DNA of 64,000 nt from an uncultured Microthrixaceae bacterium (GCA_964649545.1 CAZYPY010000002.1:7050-71049); one strand, 5' to 3'; positions 4,364 to 18,918 are shown, numbered from the stretch's first letter. A program made the numbers and translations. The notes: a model not told the origin generated them from the sequence alone.

Positions 4364-6490
<2,127 letters not shown>

Positions 6491-6496
6491 CACACT

Positions 6497-6570
6497 GGCT
6501 CCTCCTGCGTCGGAGCGGCTGCGCCATCGGGTTCGTCGGTGGGGCTGCTCCGCTCCGCTCCGCAACGTCG
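6497..6570. repeat. Copy A of a dispersed intergenic repeat family (see 18756-18910 and 23146-23343)
   Basis: The 3' half, gttcgtcggtggggctgctccgctccgctccgcaacgtcg, is near-identical to 18873-18910. The 5' half, ggctcctcctgcgtcggagcgg, resembles the 23146 copies. Confidence 0.8.
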
Positions 6571-6582
6571 ATCCATGTCCGT

Positions 6583-6618
6583 CAGCGTACGGTTTGGCGT
6601 GGTGCCGCCCGAAGTCGA
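6583..6618. repeat. Left copy of a 36-bp direct repeat flanking the DUF4143 ATPase gene
   Basis: cagcgtacggtttggcgtgGtgccgcccgaAgtcga matches 7940-7975 at 34 of 36 positions by hand alignment. Confidence 0.85.
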
Positions 6619-6626
6619 CCGTGGCG

Positions 6627-7865
6627 TCAGAGCGCGGCGATCGGCAGGAACCAGAGGTCGTCGTCGTGTTGGAACGACCGCGGTCCGGTGTGGAACACGA
6701 TGCCTCGGCGAAAGAGCGGACCGAGGCGGTCGGCGAGCCAGCGCAGGTGCCGGGCGTCGGACCGGCCGGGGGCGGCCGTCGCCTTCACCTCGCAGGCGAT
6801 GACGGAGCCGTCCGGGTGCTCGACGATCAAGTCGACCTCGTGCTCGCCGTTGGTGTCCCGGAGGTGCAGGAGGCGGGCACGGGGCGCGGTCAGCTCGACG
6901 AGGGGGCGGAGTTGGGCGGCGACGTAGGTGTCGAGCAGGCGACCGAGCACGTCGATGTCGCGGGTCGCCGTGCGCTCGTCGACGCCCAGCAGCGGCCCGA
7001 GCAGTGAGGGCTCGGTCAGGTAGCGCTTGGGGCGCTTCGCCAACCGGTTGAGCCGGTTCCCGAGGTAGGGCGGCACCCGCTCGGTCACCATGAGGGCCTC
7101 GAACACGCCGTCGTAGGCCGCGATGGTGGCCCGGTCGAGGCCGGTCGCCTCGATCAGGCGCTCGACGGCCGGGATCCCGCCGCTCGACGCGGCGATGGCG
7201 CGGAGCGCCGTGCGCAACATCGCCGGATTGCGACGCGGGCTGACGGTCTCGACGTCGCGGGTGACGAGTTGATCGACGTAGGCGTCGAGCAGACGAGACC
7301 GCTTGGCGGCGGAGCCCGCCATCGCGACCTGGGGCAGACCACCCCGGAGGGCTCGGTCGACGTAGACCCGGAAGTCCGGGGCATCCCTGATGGTGGGCAT
7401 GGCGGCCCCCGGATCCATGGCGAGGTCGAGCAGGGTGGTCTCCTCGTGACCCCGACCCTCCAGTTCGCGTTGGGTCAGACCCCACATCGCCAGCCGCACG
7501 ATGCGACCCGTTCCTGCCCATCCGGTGGTGACGAGATCGGACCGCGCCGAGCCGGTCAGCACGAACTGGCCGGCGGTGAAGTCGAGGTCGACGGCCCGCT
7601 TCACCGCGCCGAGCACCTCGGGGGCGAGCTGCCACTCGTCGATGAGCAGGGGGCGGGGCCCGGCAGCGATCGCGACATCGGGATCGGCGGTGACCACCCC
7701 GCGCTCGTTCGGGCGGTCGAGGCGTAGCGTCGTCGCCGCGTGGCGACTCGCCGTCGTGGTCTTGCCGCATCCCCGGGGCCCGACGACGAGCACGGCGGGG
7801 ACCCCGTCGACGGGGCCGAGGGCGTCCCGGAGCACCCCGTCCAACCGGCGGGGAAGGTAGTCCAT
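6627..7865 (-). CDS. AAA+ ATP-binding protein of the AAA_14/DUF4143 type
   Basis: Walker [12 protein letters not shown] and Walker B-like LLIDEWQ. The C-terminal region ([29 protein letters not shown]) is typical of the DUF4143 restriction-endonuclease-like fold. Confidence 0.8.
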
Positions 7866-7940
7866 GGTCAGACTTTAGCAGCCGATACAGTCGGCATTTA
7901 GCAGGATCAAGAGTCCGGGAAATGCCCACCGGGCCGCGGC
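7866..7940 (-). promoter_or_regulatory. A/T-rich putative promoter/operator of the ATPase gene, possibly a leaderless transcript
   Basis: Direct repeat TTTAGCAG at 7874-7881 and 7897-7904 brackets the palindrome GCCGAtacagTCGGC (7881-7895). On the gene strand, TAAAGT (TANNNT) ends 6 nt before the ATG. Confidence 0.35.
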
Positions 7941-7975
7941 AGCGTACGGTTTGGCGTGATGCCGCCCGACGTCGA
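7940..7975. repeat. Right copy of the 36-bp direct repeat; it contains the 5' leader and first codons of the fetA-like gene
   Basis: cagcgtacggtttggcgtgAtgccgcccgaCgtcga. Includes the GTG/ATG start at 7956/7959. Confidence 0.85.
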
Positions 7976-8615
7976 TCTCTTCACCTTCGAGGGGGTGCGC
8001 CTCGTGGTCGACGGCATCACCGTGCTCGACGGCGTCGATGCCCGTATCCCCGACGAGGGGCTCACCGCGATCGTCGGGCCCTCGGGGTCGGGGAAGTCCA
8101 CCCTCCTGCGCCTCTGCAACCGCCTGGAGGTGCCCACCGGGGGCCGGGTGCGCTTCCGGGGCGACGACCTCGCCGAGGTCGACCCGCTGCACCTGCGACG
8201 GCGGGTCGGCATGGTCTTCCAGCGCCCGACGCTGTTCCCGGGCACGGTGGGCGACAACCTCGCGGTCGCCGAGCCGGGGATCCCTGAGGAGGCGGCCGCC
8301 GACGCCCTGCACCGGGCCGGCCTCGACGGGTCCTTCCTGACCCGGACCGCCGACGACCTGTCGGGCGGCGAGGCCCAGCGGGCCTGCCTGGCCCGGACGC
8401 TCGTCACCCGCCCGGAGGTACTGCTCATGGACGAGCCCACCTCCGCCCTCGACGAGGAGAGCACCCGGGTGCTCGAGCACCTCGGCATCGACCTGGCCGA
8501 CAGTGGTGTCCCCGTGCTCTGGGTCACCCACGACCCCCACCAGGTCGACCGCATCGCCGACCGCCGCCTGCGCATGGAGCGGGGCCGGGTGATCGAGGGC
8601 GGAGTCGGGTCGTGA
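7956..8615 (+). CDS. fetA: ABC transporter ATP-binding protein (YbbL/FetA-like)
   Basis: Walker A GPSGSGKST, signature LSGGEAQR, Walker B LLMDEPTSALD. Overlaps the downstream YbbM-type permease gene by 4 nt. Confidence 0.8.
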   Translation: MMPPDVDLFTFEGVRLVVDGITVLDGVDARIPDEGLTAIVGPSGSGKSTLLRLCNRLEVPTGGRVRFRGDDLAEVDPLHLRRRVGMVFQRPTLFPGTVGDNLAVAEPGIPEEAAADALHRAGLDGSFLTRTADDLSGGEAQRACLARTLVTRPEVLLMDEPTSALDEESTRVLEHLGIDLADSGVPVLWVTHDPHQVDRIADRRLRMERGRVIEGGVGS

Positions 8616-9442
8616 CCGCGCTCGTGACCGCCGTCGCCGTGGTCCTCGCCGCCTCGTCGTCGGACCCCGCCGGAGACGTCACCTGGGCGGGCCTGGCCGC
8701 GTCGCTCCTGCTGGTGGCGGTGGCGGTCGGCCTGTCGTGGTGGCGGGGCTACGGCCTGGAGCGCCCGATCCTGTGGGCGTCGCTGCGGGCCATCGTGCAG
8801 CTGCTGCTGGTGGGCCTCGCCCTCACGGTGATCATCGATCCCGACGCGCCGCTGTGGCTGTCGTGGGCGTGGGTGGTGTTCATGGTCTGGTTCGCGTCGG
8901 TGGTGGTGACCCGCCGGGCGCCGGAGGTGCCGGGCCTGCTCCCGATCGCCCTGGCCGCGACCGGGGCCGCCGCGGCGGTGAGCCTGGGCGTCATCTTCGG
9001 CTTCGGCATCTTCCCGGTCGAGGGCCGGGCCATCGTGCCCCTCGCGGGGATGATGATCGGCAACTCCATGACCGCCACCGTGGTGGCGTCCCGGCGGGTG
9101 GTGGGGGAGTTGAGCGACAAGCGGGCCGAGGTCGAGGCCCGCCTCGCCCTGGGACAGCCGTGGACGGTCGCCTCCCGCCCGTACACCCGCTCGGCGGTGC
9201 GCACCGCGCTCATCAGCCAGGTCGAGACCACCAAGGCCGTCGGCCTGGTCTTCCTCCCCGGCGCCATGACCGGCCTCATCCTCGCCGGGGTCGACCCCGT
9301 CGACGCCGTCCTCGTCCAGGCCGCGGTGATGTACCTGATCCTCGGCGCGGCGGCGACCACCGTCACCGTCGTGAGCATCGGCCTGACGAGGAAGCTCTTC
9401 ACCCCCGACCACCGCCTCGTCCGCCTCGCCCGCAGGGTGTGA
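8612..9442 (+). CDS. fetB: ABC permease of the YbbM/FetB (UPF0014) family
   Basis: Polytopic membrane protein of 276 aa, translationally coupled to the ATPase gene. Size and motifs (GMMIGNSMT) fit the FetB/YbbM family. Confidence 0.75.
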   Translation: MTALVTAVAVVLAASSSDPAGDVTWAGLAASLLLVAVAVGLSWWRGYGLERPILWASLRAIVQLLLVGLALTVIIDPDAPLWLSWAWVVFMVWFASVVVTRRAPEVPGLLPIALAATGAAAAVSLGVIFGFGIFPVEGRAIVPLAGMMIGNSMTATVVASRRVVGELSDKRAEVEARLALGQPWTVASRPYTRSAVRTALISQVETTKAVGLVFLPGAMTGLILAGVDPVDAVLVQAAVMYLILGAAATTVTVVSIGLTRKLFTPDHRLVRLARRV

Positions 9443-9475: not shown

Positions 9476-9988
9476 TCAGGTGAGGCCGGCGGAGGCCCTG
9501 ATCTCGTCGAGCGACTTGAAGAGCTGGAGCGGGTGGATCGGGGACTCGACGAAGCCGAAGCGGCGGTAGAAGGCCCGGGCCTCGTCGTCGATGGCGTCGA
9601 CCAGGAGTGCTCGGGCGCCGATCAGGTCGGCGCCGCTCACGGCGCTGAGCAGCGCCTCACGCAGGAGCTCTGCCCCCCAACCGAGACCCTGGTACTCGGT
9701 GTCGATGGCGAAGCGGCCCATCCGCACGACGGGAACGGGCTCGGGCGCTCTGCGACCTACCGATGCAGGCGTCTGCTCCCTGCGCACGCTGCCGGCCGAC
9801 AGGCAGTAGTAGCCGGCGATTCGATCACCCTGGTCGTCGTCGAGCAGGAGGTAGGTGACGGCGTCACGCGACTCCATGCTCTGGCGGGCCTGGGTGGCGA
9901 GCCACCGGTCGAGCGAGGGCTCGCCGCAGGAGAACGACGCCCGCTGCTCCCTGGTGGGCGAGGCGCGGTCGTAGCGGGCCAGGCGCAC
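9476..9988 (-). CDS. GNAT-family acetyltransferase toxin (TacT/AtaT-like)
   Basis: 170 aa with an acetyl-CoA motif region (VVRMGRFAIDTEYQGLGWGAELL). Starts 8 bp downstream of a DUF1778 antitoxin gene. Confidence 0.8.
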   Translation of the reverse strand: MRLARYDRASPTREQRASFSCGEPSLDRWLATQARQSMESRDAVTYLLLDDDQGDRIAGYYCLSAGSVRREQTPASVGRRAPEPVPVVRMGRFAIDTEYQGLGWGAELLREALLSAVSGADLIGARALLVDAIDDEARAFYRRFGFVESPIHPLQLFKSLDEIRASAGLT

Positions 9989-9995
9989 GCCCGGT

Positions 9996-10271
9996 TCAGC
10001 GGGCGATCCGCTGCGGCCGAGCGAAGAGCTCGACCAGTCGTGGGTCCGGTCGAGCAGGCTCGTCGAGCACGCGGGTGAACTCGTCCCACGTGTCCTCGTC
10101 GAGCACGAAGTCGCGCTGGTCCGCCAGCAGTTGGTGGGCTCGATCGATCGCCGACGACGTGAGGAACTCGCTGACCGATTGACCCGACTGCGCCGCCGCG
10201 CGACGGATGAGCTCGTCGTCGGTGGCGCGGAGGCGCAGGTTCAGGCGGGCGTCCTTCGTGGAAGCAGGCAT
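9996..10271 (-). CDS. DUF1778 (RHH) antitoxin (TacA-like)
   Basis: 91 aa: MPASTKDARLNLRLRATDDELIRRAAAQSGQSVSEFLTSSAIDRA. This is the typical ribbon-helix-helix DUF1778 N-terminus. Only the last 276 nt of the supplied 654-aa ORF look like real coding sequence. Confidence 0.8.
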   Translation of the reverse strand: MPASTKDARLNLRLRATDDELIRRAAAQSGQSVSEFLTSSAIDRAHQLLADQRDFVLDEDTWDEFTRVLDEPARPDPRLVELFARPQRIAR

Positions 10272-17915: not shown

Positions 17916-18746
17916 TCAGATGGTGAAGCCGAAGCGGCGCACCGCCTCGACCTGCTCCTCGGTGAACGGATGGTCGAGGTGGTCGCGCCAACGACCGCTC
18001 GACGCGGGCGTCTGGACCTTGGCCGCGATGGCCGGGAGCTGGTCACCGGGCTCGACGCCGGCGAACTCGAGCAGGCGGTGCAGCTCACCCTCGGGGTCGG
18101 CGCACAGGTCGTCGAAGCGCAGGAAGAGGAACCGGTCGCCGAGGCGGTCGCCGAGGTCGAGCGCCCGCCGGGTCATGTGGATCCAGTAGCCGAGCTGCGA
18201 CGCGGCCTCGGCGTCGGGCCCTTCGCCCTCGGGGAACGGAAACCCGAACTGGTCGCCGAAGTTGCGGAGCTGGTTCTTGTTCTCGCTGTAGGCCATGTCG
18301 AGGCCGTGGCGGGCCACGTAGACGAAGCGCAGGGCGGGGAAGTGGTCGATGAGCTGGGGGAGGAAGAGGTGGCTGTTCGGCTCCTTCCAGCCCCAGGCCG
18401 CGGCCCGGCGACGCTCGGCTCGGGGCCGGCGGGCGAAGGCGGCCCGCACCCGTTCGGCCGACTCCCGCCGACCCACGGTCGGGTCGTGGTCGATGATGAC
18501 GCGCCCGAGGCGGGTGAGGTCGGCCGGGGTGAAGGGCCGGTCCCGGGAGTACCGGGTGAAGGTGGCCAGGTGGCGGCGGACCGCCGGGTCGCCCGCGGTG
18601 GCGAACCAGCGGGGCCGCTTGAACAGGGCGGTGAAGACGAGGTTGTCGAGGGCGGCGTTGAAGAGCCGGCCCATGTCGACACCGGCGTCTCGGAGGGCCA
18701 CAGCGTACACCCGGGTCCCGCTGCCCCCCAGCCCCCCGATCACCAA
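17916..18746 (-). CDS. Sulfotransferase-family protein (paralog 3)
   Basis: VIGGLGGSGTRVYAVAL P-loop variant, followed by sulfotransferase-like regions (WGWKEPNSHLFLP, VYVARHGLDMAYS). I place the start at TTG 18746 or GTG 18743. The ATG at 18914 would translate two tandem intergenic repeats. Confidence 0.65.
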   Translation of the reverse strand: MVIGGLGGSGTRVYAVALRDAGVDMGRLFNAALDNLVFTALFKRPRWFATAGDPAVRRHLATFTRYSRDRPFTPADLTRLGRVIIDHDPTVGRRESAERVRAAFARRPRAERRRAAAWGWKEPNSHLFLPQLIDHFPALRFVYVARHGLDMAYSENKNQLRNFGDQFGFPFPEGEGPDAEAASQLGYWIHMTRRALDLGDRLGDRFLFLRFDDLCADPEGELHRLLEFAGVEPGDQLPAIAAKVQTPASSGRWRDHLDHPFTEEQVEAVRRFGFTI

Positions 18747-18755
18747 TGGCCTTGT

Positions 18756-18910
18756 GGCTCCTTCGTCGCCACCCCTTCGGGATCCGGTTCGTCGGTGCGG
18801 CTGCTCCGCTCCGCTTCGCAGCGTCGCCGGTTCCTCGGTGGCTCCTTCGTCGCCACCCCTTCGGGATCCGGTTCGTCGGTGCGGCTGCTCCGCTCCGCTC
18901 CGCAACGTCG
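18756..18910. repeat. Two tandem copies (84-bp period) of the dispersed repeat family
   Basis: Copies at 18756-18826 and 18840-18910 share ggctccttcgtcgccaccccttcgggatccggttcgtcggtgcggctgctccgctccgc(t/-)tcgca(g/a)cgtcg. They are separated by a 13-bp linker. Confidence 0.9.
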
Positions 18911-18918
18911 CCATCGCG

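Follow-up and report, generated by a model that had tools for sequence, protein, structure and literature searches.

Does a pair of direct repeats around a solitary gene identify this gene as a mobile cassette? The question is raised by a stretch of 64,000 nucleotides from an uncultured Microthrixaceae bacterium (GCA_964649545.1, CAZYPY010000002.1:7050-71049), which is referred to here as the window. In it a single gene for an AAA+ ATPase with a DUF4143 region is located between mutB and a fetA-like ABC ATPase gene, and two nearly identical copies of a 36-nt sequence flank it. The initial annotation had proposed either the footprint of a single-gene insertion with a long target duplication or an att-like, site-specific integration, and had envisaged a mobile single-gene cassette. 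Our comparisons with related genomes confirm an insertion and a duplicated target. Of an active mobile cassette there is no sign; the case is a well-documented horizontal acquisition of a candidate defence gene.

The two 36-mers (6583-6618 and 7940-7975) have the same orientation and agree in 34 of 36 positions, exactly as annotated. A repeat search lengthens the pair to 39 nt (6580-6618 and 7937-7975, 36/39), and an alignment with relatives delimits a shared block of 38 nt, CAGCG...GTCGA(C/T)C, at 6583-6620 and 7940-7977, which is identical in 35 of 38 positions. The right copy includes the leader and the first codons of the fetA-like gene (GTG ATG CCG CCC GAC GTC GAT; open reading frame 7956-8615), again in agreement with the earlier description. 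The left copy reads GTG GTG CCG CCC GAA GTC GAC; beyond it there is only sequence antisense to the ATPase. The annotation had allowed that the 36-mer might be part of a common dispersed repeat. This is ruled out. With up to three mismatches the 36-mer pattern occurs exactly twice in the window against an expectation of 0.00 (100 shuffles), and in 186 fetched loci (1.8 Mb searched by BLAST) the 38-mer is confined to orthologous mutB/fetA positions.

What did the site look like before the ATPase gene was there? A FetB-based scan, restricted to one genome per species, yielded 80 loci, mostly from Acidimicrobiales metagenome-assembled genomes. The three closest full loci (L012, L013, and L014; FetB 92, 90, and 85% identical) possess divergent mutB and fetA genes without an ATPase. 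The layout of these empty sites is tight: the mutB ATG, 5 bp, and a single CAGCGTACGGTTTGGCGTGGTGCCGCCAGAAGTCGACC copy which continues directly into fetA, with the start codons of mutB and fetA about 21 bp apart. mutB adjoins fetA in most Acidimicrobiales loci, and it does so directly in 24 more distant ones as well. Because L012-L014 are empty and the adjacency of mutB and fetA prevails in 24 further loci, the empty state is, as judged from these loci, the ancestral one, and 6621-7939 (1,319 nt) is an insertion. A single-gene insertion with a duplicated target is thus borne out, as is the expected empty site in which the start of mutB abuts fetA with one copy of the 38-mer. The content of the 1.32 kb was also described correctly: the ATPase gene is the single real gene, its upstream spacer has a lower GC content (0.60 at 7850-7949 vs 0.70-0.79 nearby), and open reading frames and Pfam matches reveal no recombinase, integrase or transposase gene within the insert.

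The filled arrangement with both repeat copies is found in the window and the identical contigs L001-L005, in L006/L007, and in L091, L181, and L183. Among the filled lineages the ATPase gene shows a synonymous divergence (dS) of 0.17-0.26 and a ratio of non-synonymous to synonymous divergence (dN/dS) of 0.11-0.15. The dN of fetA is at most 0.11 inside the ATPase-bearing group and 0.16-0.20 to the empty-site genomes. Since five diverged lineages share the arrangement and the dN/dS of the ATPase is 0.11-0.15, the insertion is, on these comparisons, old. The data fit a single insertion at the base of the clade, after which a functional gene was passed on vertically. This is not the picture of an att-like or currently mobile cassette. 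As a reason to abandon insertion the initial annotation had named relatives that all carry the same arrangement with diverged repeats and without empty sites. Relatives do carry it with diverged repeats, which comes close, yet empty sites exist. Of the orthologous ATPase genes, that of L091 has an in-frame 21-nt deletion compared with the window (L091 about 1095-1120; window about 7236-7256).

How long was the original duplication? The distance from the left repeat to the ATPase stop is about 80 nt in L091, L181, and L183, and 6 nt in the window and in L006. In the former three lineages these ~80 nt continue the repeat in register as decayed fetA codons 8 to ~25 or more, i.e., as a ghost of the fetA 5' end. 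As an example, L183 has GATTCGCCTTCGAGCGGTGCGCC where fetA has CTGTTCGCCTTCGAGGGGGTGCGCC. The adjoining ghost sequence is merely 45-64% identical. Alignments anchored at the repeat boundary reach scores of 13-15; the observed score was attained by 0 of 300 shuffles and by 0 of 295 controls taken from real sequence (top control score 12). Leftward beyond CAGCG, toward mutB, the duplication does not extend; anchored alignments in this direction remain at chance level. Because the ghost runs in register into fetA codons with anchored scores beyond all controls, the original duplication measured at least 75-90 bp, possibly ~118 bp, almost to the ATPase stop. By the alignments, the duplicated stretch starts 5 bp outside the mutB ATG and reaches fetA codon 25 or farther. 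The repeat of 36-38 nt, in which the initial annotation had seen a target duplication or an att-like site, is on this evidence the conserved stump of a longer duplication, the remainder of which decayed or was deleted; the branch leading to the window and L006 later lost 75 nt of ghost by deletion.

Why were just 38 nt preserved? Across lineages the left copy matches the empty sites in 35-37 of 38 positions, the functional right copy in 32-35. Within the 38-mer the ghosts of L183 and L091 share 36 of 38 positions. The block holds the hexamer TACGGT 5 nt before the fetA GTG and, on the opposite strand, TACGCT 6 nt before the mutB ATG; the two overlap by 2 bases. In the left copy of the window the fetA-type TACGGT is at 6588-6593, the minus-strand TACGCT at 6584-6589, and the ghost fetA start GTG GTG at 6599-6604. 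A Shine-Dalgarno sequence is present neither at the mutB nor at the fetA start of the empty sites. The same is true for 27 Acidimicrobiales loci, in which a distance of 5-8 nt separates a conserved CAGnnTA from the mutB start, and TGTCATGCTG precedes that of fetA by 6-7 nt. In actinobacteria a leaderless start is preceded by a TANNNT -10 box at a distance of about 7 nt. From the conserved hexamers and this rule we infer that the 38-mer comprises the overlapping -10 boxes of two leaderless, back-to-back promoters, TACGCT for mutB and TACGGT for fetA. All left copies read (window, L006, L091, L181, L183) and the three empty sites have an intact minus-strand TACGCT; the right copies of L006 (TACGCG) and L183 (TACGTC) have lost it. 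The TACGGT box and the fetA start are intact in all right copies. On this reading, mutB would have kept its promoter in the left copy, and fetA its promoter and start in the right copy, i.e., 38 nt of the repeat were probably retained because a neighbour's promoter lies within. If the promoters are read correctly, a simple insertion could not have spared both genes, and only an event which duplicated the block would have been survivable. The initial annotation had considered the left copy as a ghost start. Indeed, it opens no gene; its conservation, however, exceeds that of the functional copy, and most likely it still serves as the mutB promoter.

In distant Acidimicrobiales (27 loci, e.g., L046 3048-3157) the mutB-fetA intergenic region shows a strongly conserved CAGACTAAGAGG...GGGTGTCATGCTGGCG. 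Probably, these are back-to-back leaderless promoters as well, which in the subgroup of the window were compressed to overlapping -10 boxes.

Next, the nature of the inserted DNA must be considered. Homologues of the ATPase with 82, 79, 79, 70, and 67% identity are each a lone gene, in five different contexts which include positions beside cytochrome bd, beside a PemK toxin, beside a PIN toxin, and in a gap flanked by amidohydrolase and RraA-like genes. With the 82% copy (L171), nucleotide homology extends from 16 nt before the start to 1 nt past the stop. All homologues of 67-95% identity, the five other contexts included, have CTGCTAAA boxes upstream, at -16, -39, (-62, -85) (window 7874-7904; L171 4939-4992; L172 1782-1858; L174 4917-4992; L180 3940-3992). 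Since copies in other contexts share the upstream boxes, the travelling unit is, on this evidence, promoter plus gene, and in this evolutionary sense the gene moves horizontally. The boxes may constitute an operator for the winged-helix domain of the protein. Because the proximal box carries a -10-like TAAAGT 7 nt before the ATPase ATG and a Shine-Dalgarno sequence is missing, we infer a leaderless ATPase mRNA. DUF4143 genes have between two and four such boxes upstream, spaced by exactly 23 bp, the proximal one over a -10-like hexamer 7 nt ahead of a start codon which lacks a Shine-Dalgarno sequence. Distant subfamilies have other boxes, ACACTGCTACGCT, CCGCGTAGAATTG, AAGTRGTAGGTTA, and CCGGGAATGG, with a spacing of ~23-25 bp as judged by eye. 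Further box-bearing DUF4143 loci are L093, L100, L102-L106, L108, and L110.

Between 83 and 93% identity no ATPase homologue was seen. Proteins with 94-96% identity (P0004, P0006) and the 97% metagenome locus L091 belong to the orthologous locus, and the same holds for every homologue above 83% for which the context was read. Homologues on plasmids are common (307 records, at most 42% identity); in phage records they are rare. One of the 79% homologues is present in L178 (1366-2799) and absent in the ~80% identical relative L184 (reverse complement 389-819). There, an unrelated spacer of 431 nt separates the same amidohydrolase and RraA-like genes, with neither an ATPase remnant nor a duplication; as the spacers of L178 and L184 cannot be aligned, no insertion junction is readable at this place. 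Near two of the homologues a second, split or truncated DUF4143/AAA_14 gene is located on the opposite strand, a few kb or less away (L171 1137-2323, L176 3969-4505). This points to recurrent gain or decay at these positions.

Do such homologues carry flanking repeats? At 47 metagenome loci (27-45% identity) the best score was 12, which is within the shuffle range (maxima 8-12); the window scored 30. At the five close non-orthologous loci no flanking repeats were detected, neither ungapped nor gapped, as would be required for decayed ones, with positive controls scoring 33 and 47. The 38-mer never occurs beside the ATPase at non-orthologous loci, be it at the five close homologues or in the 186 loci (1.8 Mb). 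Because the close homologues in five contexts are devoid of flanking repeats, the repeat is, by this comparison, neither a hallmark of the family nor an att site. The mobile single-gene cassette recognizable by its flanking repeat, as envisaged initially, is therefore not supported: 0 of 47 distant and 0 of 5 close non-orthologous loci have one.

In Pfam, the protein passes the gathering cut-offs for AAA_14 (E 7e-14) and for DUF4143 (E 2.4e-29), and the PADLOC model PDLC04790 for PDC-S01 matches over the full length (residues 1-412, E 3.7e-97). No NCBIfam model matches the ATPase. The motifs are Walker A GPRGCGKTT, Walker B LLIDEW, and the nuclease residues E343, D345, and E359-V-K361. In 34 homologues G29, G34, K35, T36, T37, D76, E77, E343, E359, and K361 are invariant, and D345 is conserved in at least 90%. 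The AlphaFold model is confident, with a predicted local distance difference test score (pLDDT) of 89.8 and a predicted template-modelling score (pTM) of 0.91. A Foldseek comparison with the Protein Data Bank retrieved just distant AAA+ folds (RFC, ORC, MuB, STAND) and the Card1/Can2 nucleases, and a sequence search found no solved relative there. DUF4143 has been assigned to the PD-(D/E)xK superfamily (PMC3424549). The PDC families go back to a proposal based on genes located within restriction-modification (RM), BREX or DISARM loci (bioRxiv 10.1101/2024.01.29.577857). PDC-S01, an ATPase fused to a PD-(D/E)xK domain, is reported as the fourth most common prokaryotic 'defence' (PMC12988326); it is a candidate defence family with validation pending (PMC12988326; bioRxiv 10.1101/2024.01.29.577857). 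The gene described here resembles PDC-S01 (COG1373) in its full-length PDLC04790 match, in the architecture of ATPase plus PD-(D/E)xK as described in PMC12988326, and in being a lone gene, which in other contexts has PemK and PIN toxins and Schlafen/AlbA_2 among its neighbours. It differs in that it sits between housekeeping genes and not within an RM, BREX or DISARM locus. The ATPase is under purifying selection and presumably acts as a nucleoside triphosphate-dependent nuclease in defence.

Taken together, we consider an old insertion of a foreign gene into the mutB/fetA control region, by a host-mediated event with duplication of the target and retention of 38 nt as promoters, as the probable history, with reasonable though by no means full confidence. 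In a common ancestor of a small Acidimicrobiales clade 1.32 kb of foreign DNA would have entered the tight divergent control region. The incoming piece would have consisted of one PDC-S01-type gene with its own boxed promoter. The event duplicated at least 75-90 bp of the target, with the insert ending up between the copies, and would have been tolerable only because both copies of the block were kept, the left one as mutB promoter, the right one as fetA promoter and start. Purifying selection would then have frozen 38 nt of the left copy, whereas the rest of the ghost decayed (L091, L181, L183) or was deleted (window, L006), and the ATPase would have been inherited vertically under purifying selection. 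Because at least 75-90 bp were duplicated around a promoter plus gene without any element-encoded machinery, the integration was most likely a one-off host-mediated event, i.e., illegitimate end-joining, template switching, homology-facilitated illegitimate recombination, or a Campbell-type event anchored in fetA. Less likely is a system dedicated to transposition or to site-specific integration. Homology-facilitated illegitimate recombination is a known process which has been described for transformation and conjugation (e.g., PMC3240628). Like the Campbell-type route, it leaves the insert beside or between tens to hundreds of bp of duplicated host sequence and requires no element-encoded enzyme. 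Both routes are consistent with the extent of the duplication (at least 75-90 bp) and with copies which differed early on. A difference is that the donor arrangement, ATPase boxes joined to CAGCG-fetA, was not found.

Several points weigh against this account. Ghost homology is weak past ~50 nt (45-51% in a MAFFT alignment), which renders the full length of the duplication uncertain. The promoter and leaderless calls rest on sequence conservation and on the actinobacterial TANNNT rule; a scan for E. coli-type sigma-70 promoters was empty, as is expected for high-GC Actinomycetota. Further, the ATPase gene is co-directional with mutB, and an E. coli-type scan finds no terminator between them. 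Read-through could feed mutB, and this possibility weakens the need for a promoter in the left copy. All right copies have GAC where the ghosts and the empty sites have GAA, so the right copy was perhaps borne by the donor; a mutation before the clade diversified explains the difference equally well. Finally, a single old event cannot tell integration mechanisms apart.

Could the repeats nevertheless be attL and attR? A small circle with the ATPase and an attP which copied the control region and the 5' end of fetA would have been integrated by a recombinase acting in trans. Many integrative elements restore the end of their target gene through direct repeats. As in prophages and islands, direct repeats flank the insert here, and a functional copy takes the place of the displaced gene end, i.e., the 5' end of the target gene is rebuilt. 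The early difference between the copies, GAA in ghosts and empty sites and GAC in right copies, fits one copy arriving with an element. Direct repeats and a single-copy empty site are indeed present, yet they are common to any insertion which generates a duplication and do not discriminate. The insert has no integrase (the insert alone was screened, not the whole window), and the element would have to carry the ATPase as its only cargo. Other insertions do not make use of the repeat: the 38-mer is neither beside the five non-orthologous close homologues nor elsewhere in 1.8 Mb of fetched loci, and the other scanned loci of the family are without flanking repeats. The copy appears to be retained by selection on a host promoter; nothing shows retention as a recombination site. 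An attC site of the integron cassette type was not detected either. The window has just 6 nt from the ATPase stop to the host-derived repeat, and the ~80 nt after the stop in L091 and L183 are decayed fetA sequence, not attC. On balance, an att-type integration is unlikely.

A transposition mobilised in trans, by a transposase which produces long and variable target duplications so that the repeat is a true target-site duplication, has even less probability. The target is directly duplicated at both ends of the inserted DNA, as in transposons, and transposons do land at this place, because an ISL3 transposase is located in the same gap of L033. However, terminal inverted repeats are missing: the best inverted match of the 60-nt ends scores 6 against a null mean of 6.4, and 393 of 500 shuffles reach at least this value. 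A transposase gene is absent from the insert, and self-BLAST finds no second copy of the insert in the window. A duplication of at least 75-90 bp far exceeds the usual 2-15 bp. Moreover, the ends of the insert are a stop codon and a promoter and not transposon ends, and the homology to L171 ends 1 nt past the stop.

It is equally very doubtful that the protein mobilises itself, with the DUF4143 AAA+/PD-(D/E)xK protein cutting at a wide stagger and inserting its own gene as a one-gene selfish element. Lone homologues of 67-82% identity in five unrelated contexts, intact nuclease and ATPase motifs, and an abundant, often plasmid-borne family (PMC12988326) are compatible with such a proposal, and the conserved boxes spaced by 23 bp, which travel with the gene, could be binding sites. 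Yet at 52 other loci there is no flanking duplication, intact or decayed; here, inheritance is stably vertical under purifying selection; and a multi-copy set of near-identical genes was not seen, with nothing at 83-93% and the 94-97% homologues looked up at the orthologous locus. Besides, horizontal transfer of defence genes needs no self-mobility.

We attach just as little weight to the reverse history, in which the ATPase is ancestral and was lost in L012-L014 through recombination between the repeats, so that the empty sites are excision scars. Recombination between direct repeats of 38-118 bp would leave exactly one copy, as seen. But 24 further, distant Acidimicrobiales loci have mutB beside fetA without an ATPase, the empty sites are devoid of an 86-nt mutB leader which all ATPase-bearing lineages carry, and the ATPase-bearing genomes are the more closely knit group in terms of fetA divergence.

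Barely credible is the general form of self-mobility, in which all DUF4143/PDC-S01 genes are autonomous one-gene mobile elements whose protein binds its own 23-bp boxes and inserts the gene by widely staggered cuts with long target duplications that usually decay; if true, the duplication survived here only as a promoter, and the abundance of the family would be explained without a known vehicle.

Features of the mutB/fetA locus in the window (positions counted from the first nucleotide)
Feature	Position	Strand	Description
mutB	4364-6490	-	methylmalonyl-CoA mutase; MM_CoA_mutase (E 2.7e-242) and B12-binding (Pfam); ATG 6488-6490 with a preceding AGGAGGAG Shine-Dalgarno sequence
mutB leader insertion	6491-6576	-	86 nt, lineage-specific, in the mutB 5' end
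Left 38-nt copy	6583-6620		CAGCGTACGGTTTGGCGTGGTGCCGCCCGAAGTCGACC; ancestral spelling, 37/38 vs the single copy of L012 and L013
Remnant between left repeat and ATPase stop	6621-6626		6 nt; ~80 nt in L091, L181, L183
AAA+ ATPase/winged-helix/PD-(D/E)xK nuclease gene	6627-7865	-	412 amino acids; Pfam AAA_14 and DUF4143
ATPase regulatory region	7866-7904	-	two CTGCTAAA boxes (plus-strand TTTAGCAG at 7874-7881 and 7897-7904), 23 bp apart
Distal inserted DNA	7905-7939		35 nt without counterpart in the empty sites; the duplication does not reach leftward into it
Right 38-nt copy	7940-7977		CAGCGTACGGTTTGGCGTGATGCCGCCCGACGTCGATC; derived spelling: GTG to ATG, GAA to GAC, GAC to GAT
fetA-like ABC ATPase	7956-8615	+	Pfam ABC_tran
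fetB-like permease	8612-9442	+	Pfam UPF0014; with fetA the target operon (7956-9442), 5' end duplicated

To the left of the insert are mutB and meaB, to the right the fetA-like and fetB-like genes; the NCBIfam FetA and FetB models match the latter two proteins below the curated cut-offs. The mutB leader, which distinguishes the ATPase-bearing lineages from L012-L014, has altered the start of mutB. The ancestral mutB ATG (6574-6576) now begins an upstream open reading frame of 28 codons whose stop overlaps the new ATG (TGATG). A core of 41 nt of this leader (6530-6570) recurs at 18786 and 18870. The latter copies lie in an 84-bp tandem repeat (18750-18915) at the 5' end of an open reading frame on the minus strand (17916-18914). 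Rfam has no match in the window, the mutB leader included.

Other lineages of Acidimicrobiales have independently received inserts in the mutB/fetA gap, of 0.9-5 kb (L015, L023, L025, L029, L033, L038, L047, L053, L066). Among them are the ISL3 transposase (L033 3009-4241), a CmcI-type methyltransferase (L038 502-1323), and several open reading frames without Pfam hits; a DUF4143 gene is not among these gap inserts. The gap looks like a recurrent landing place. Just downstream of fetB, a GNAT acetyltransferase gene (9476-9988, minus strand) adjoins a gene for a TacA1/NikA-like small protein (about 9996-10271, minus strand), which looks like a toxin-antitoxin pair of the TacAT type.

What does this locus teach? 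It reveals no new mechanism of mobility. It is a clean natural case of a single candidate defence gene which became lodged in an overlapping divergent promoter, and both empty sites as controls and several descendant lineages are available for it. Selection on a duplicated host promoter, and not necessarily recent mobility, can be what lies behind a well-conserved 'target duplication'. This cautions against taking flanking repeats as att sites or as proof of a young insertion. For the abundant PDC-S01 family two leads emerge, a minimal unit of promoter plus gene, and upstream boxes with a periodicity of 23 bp as a possible operator.

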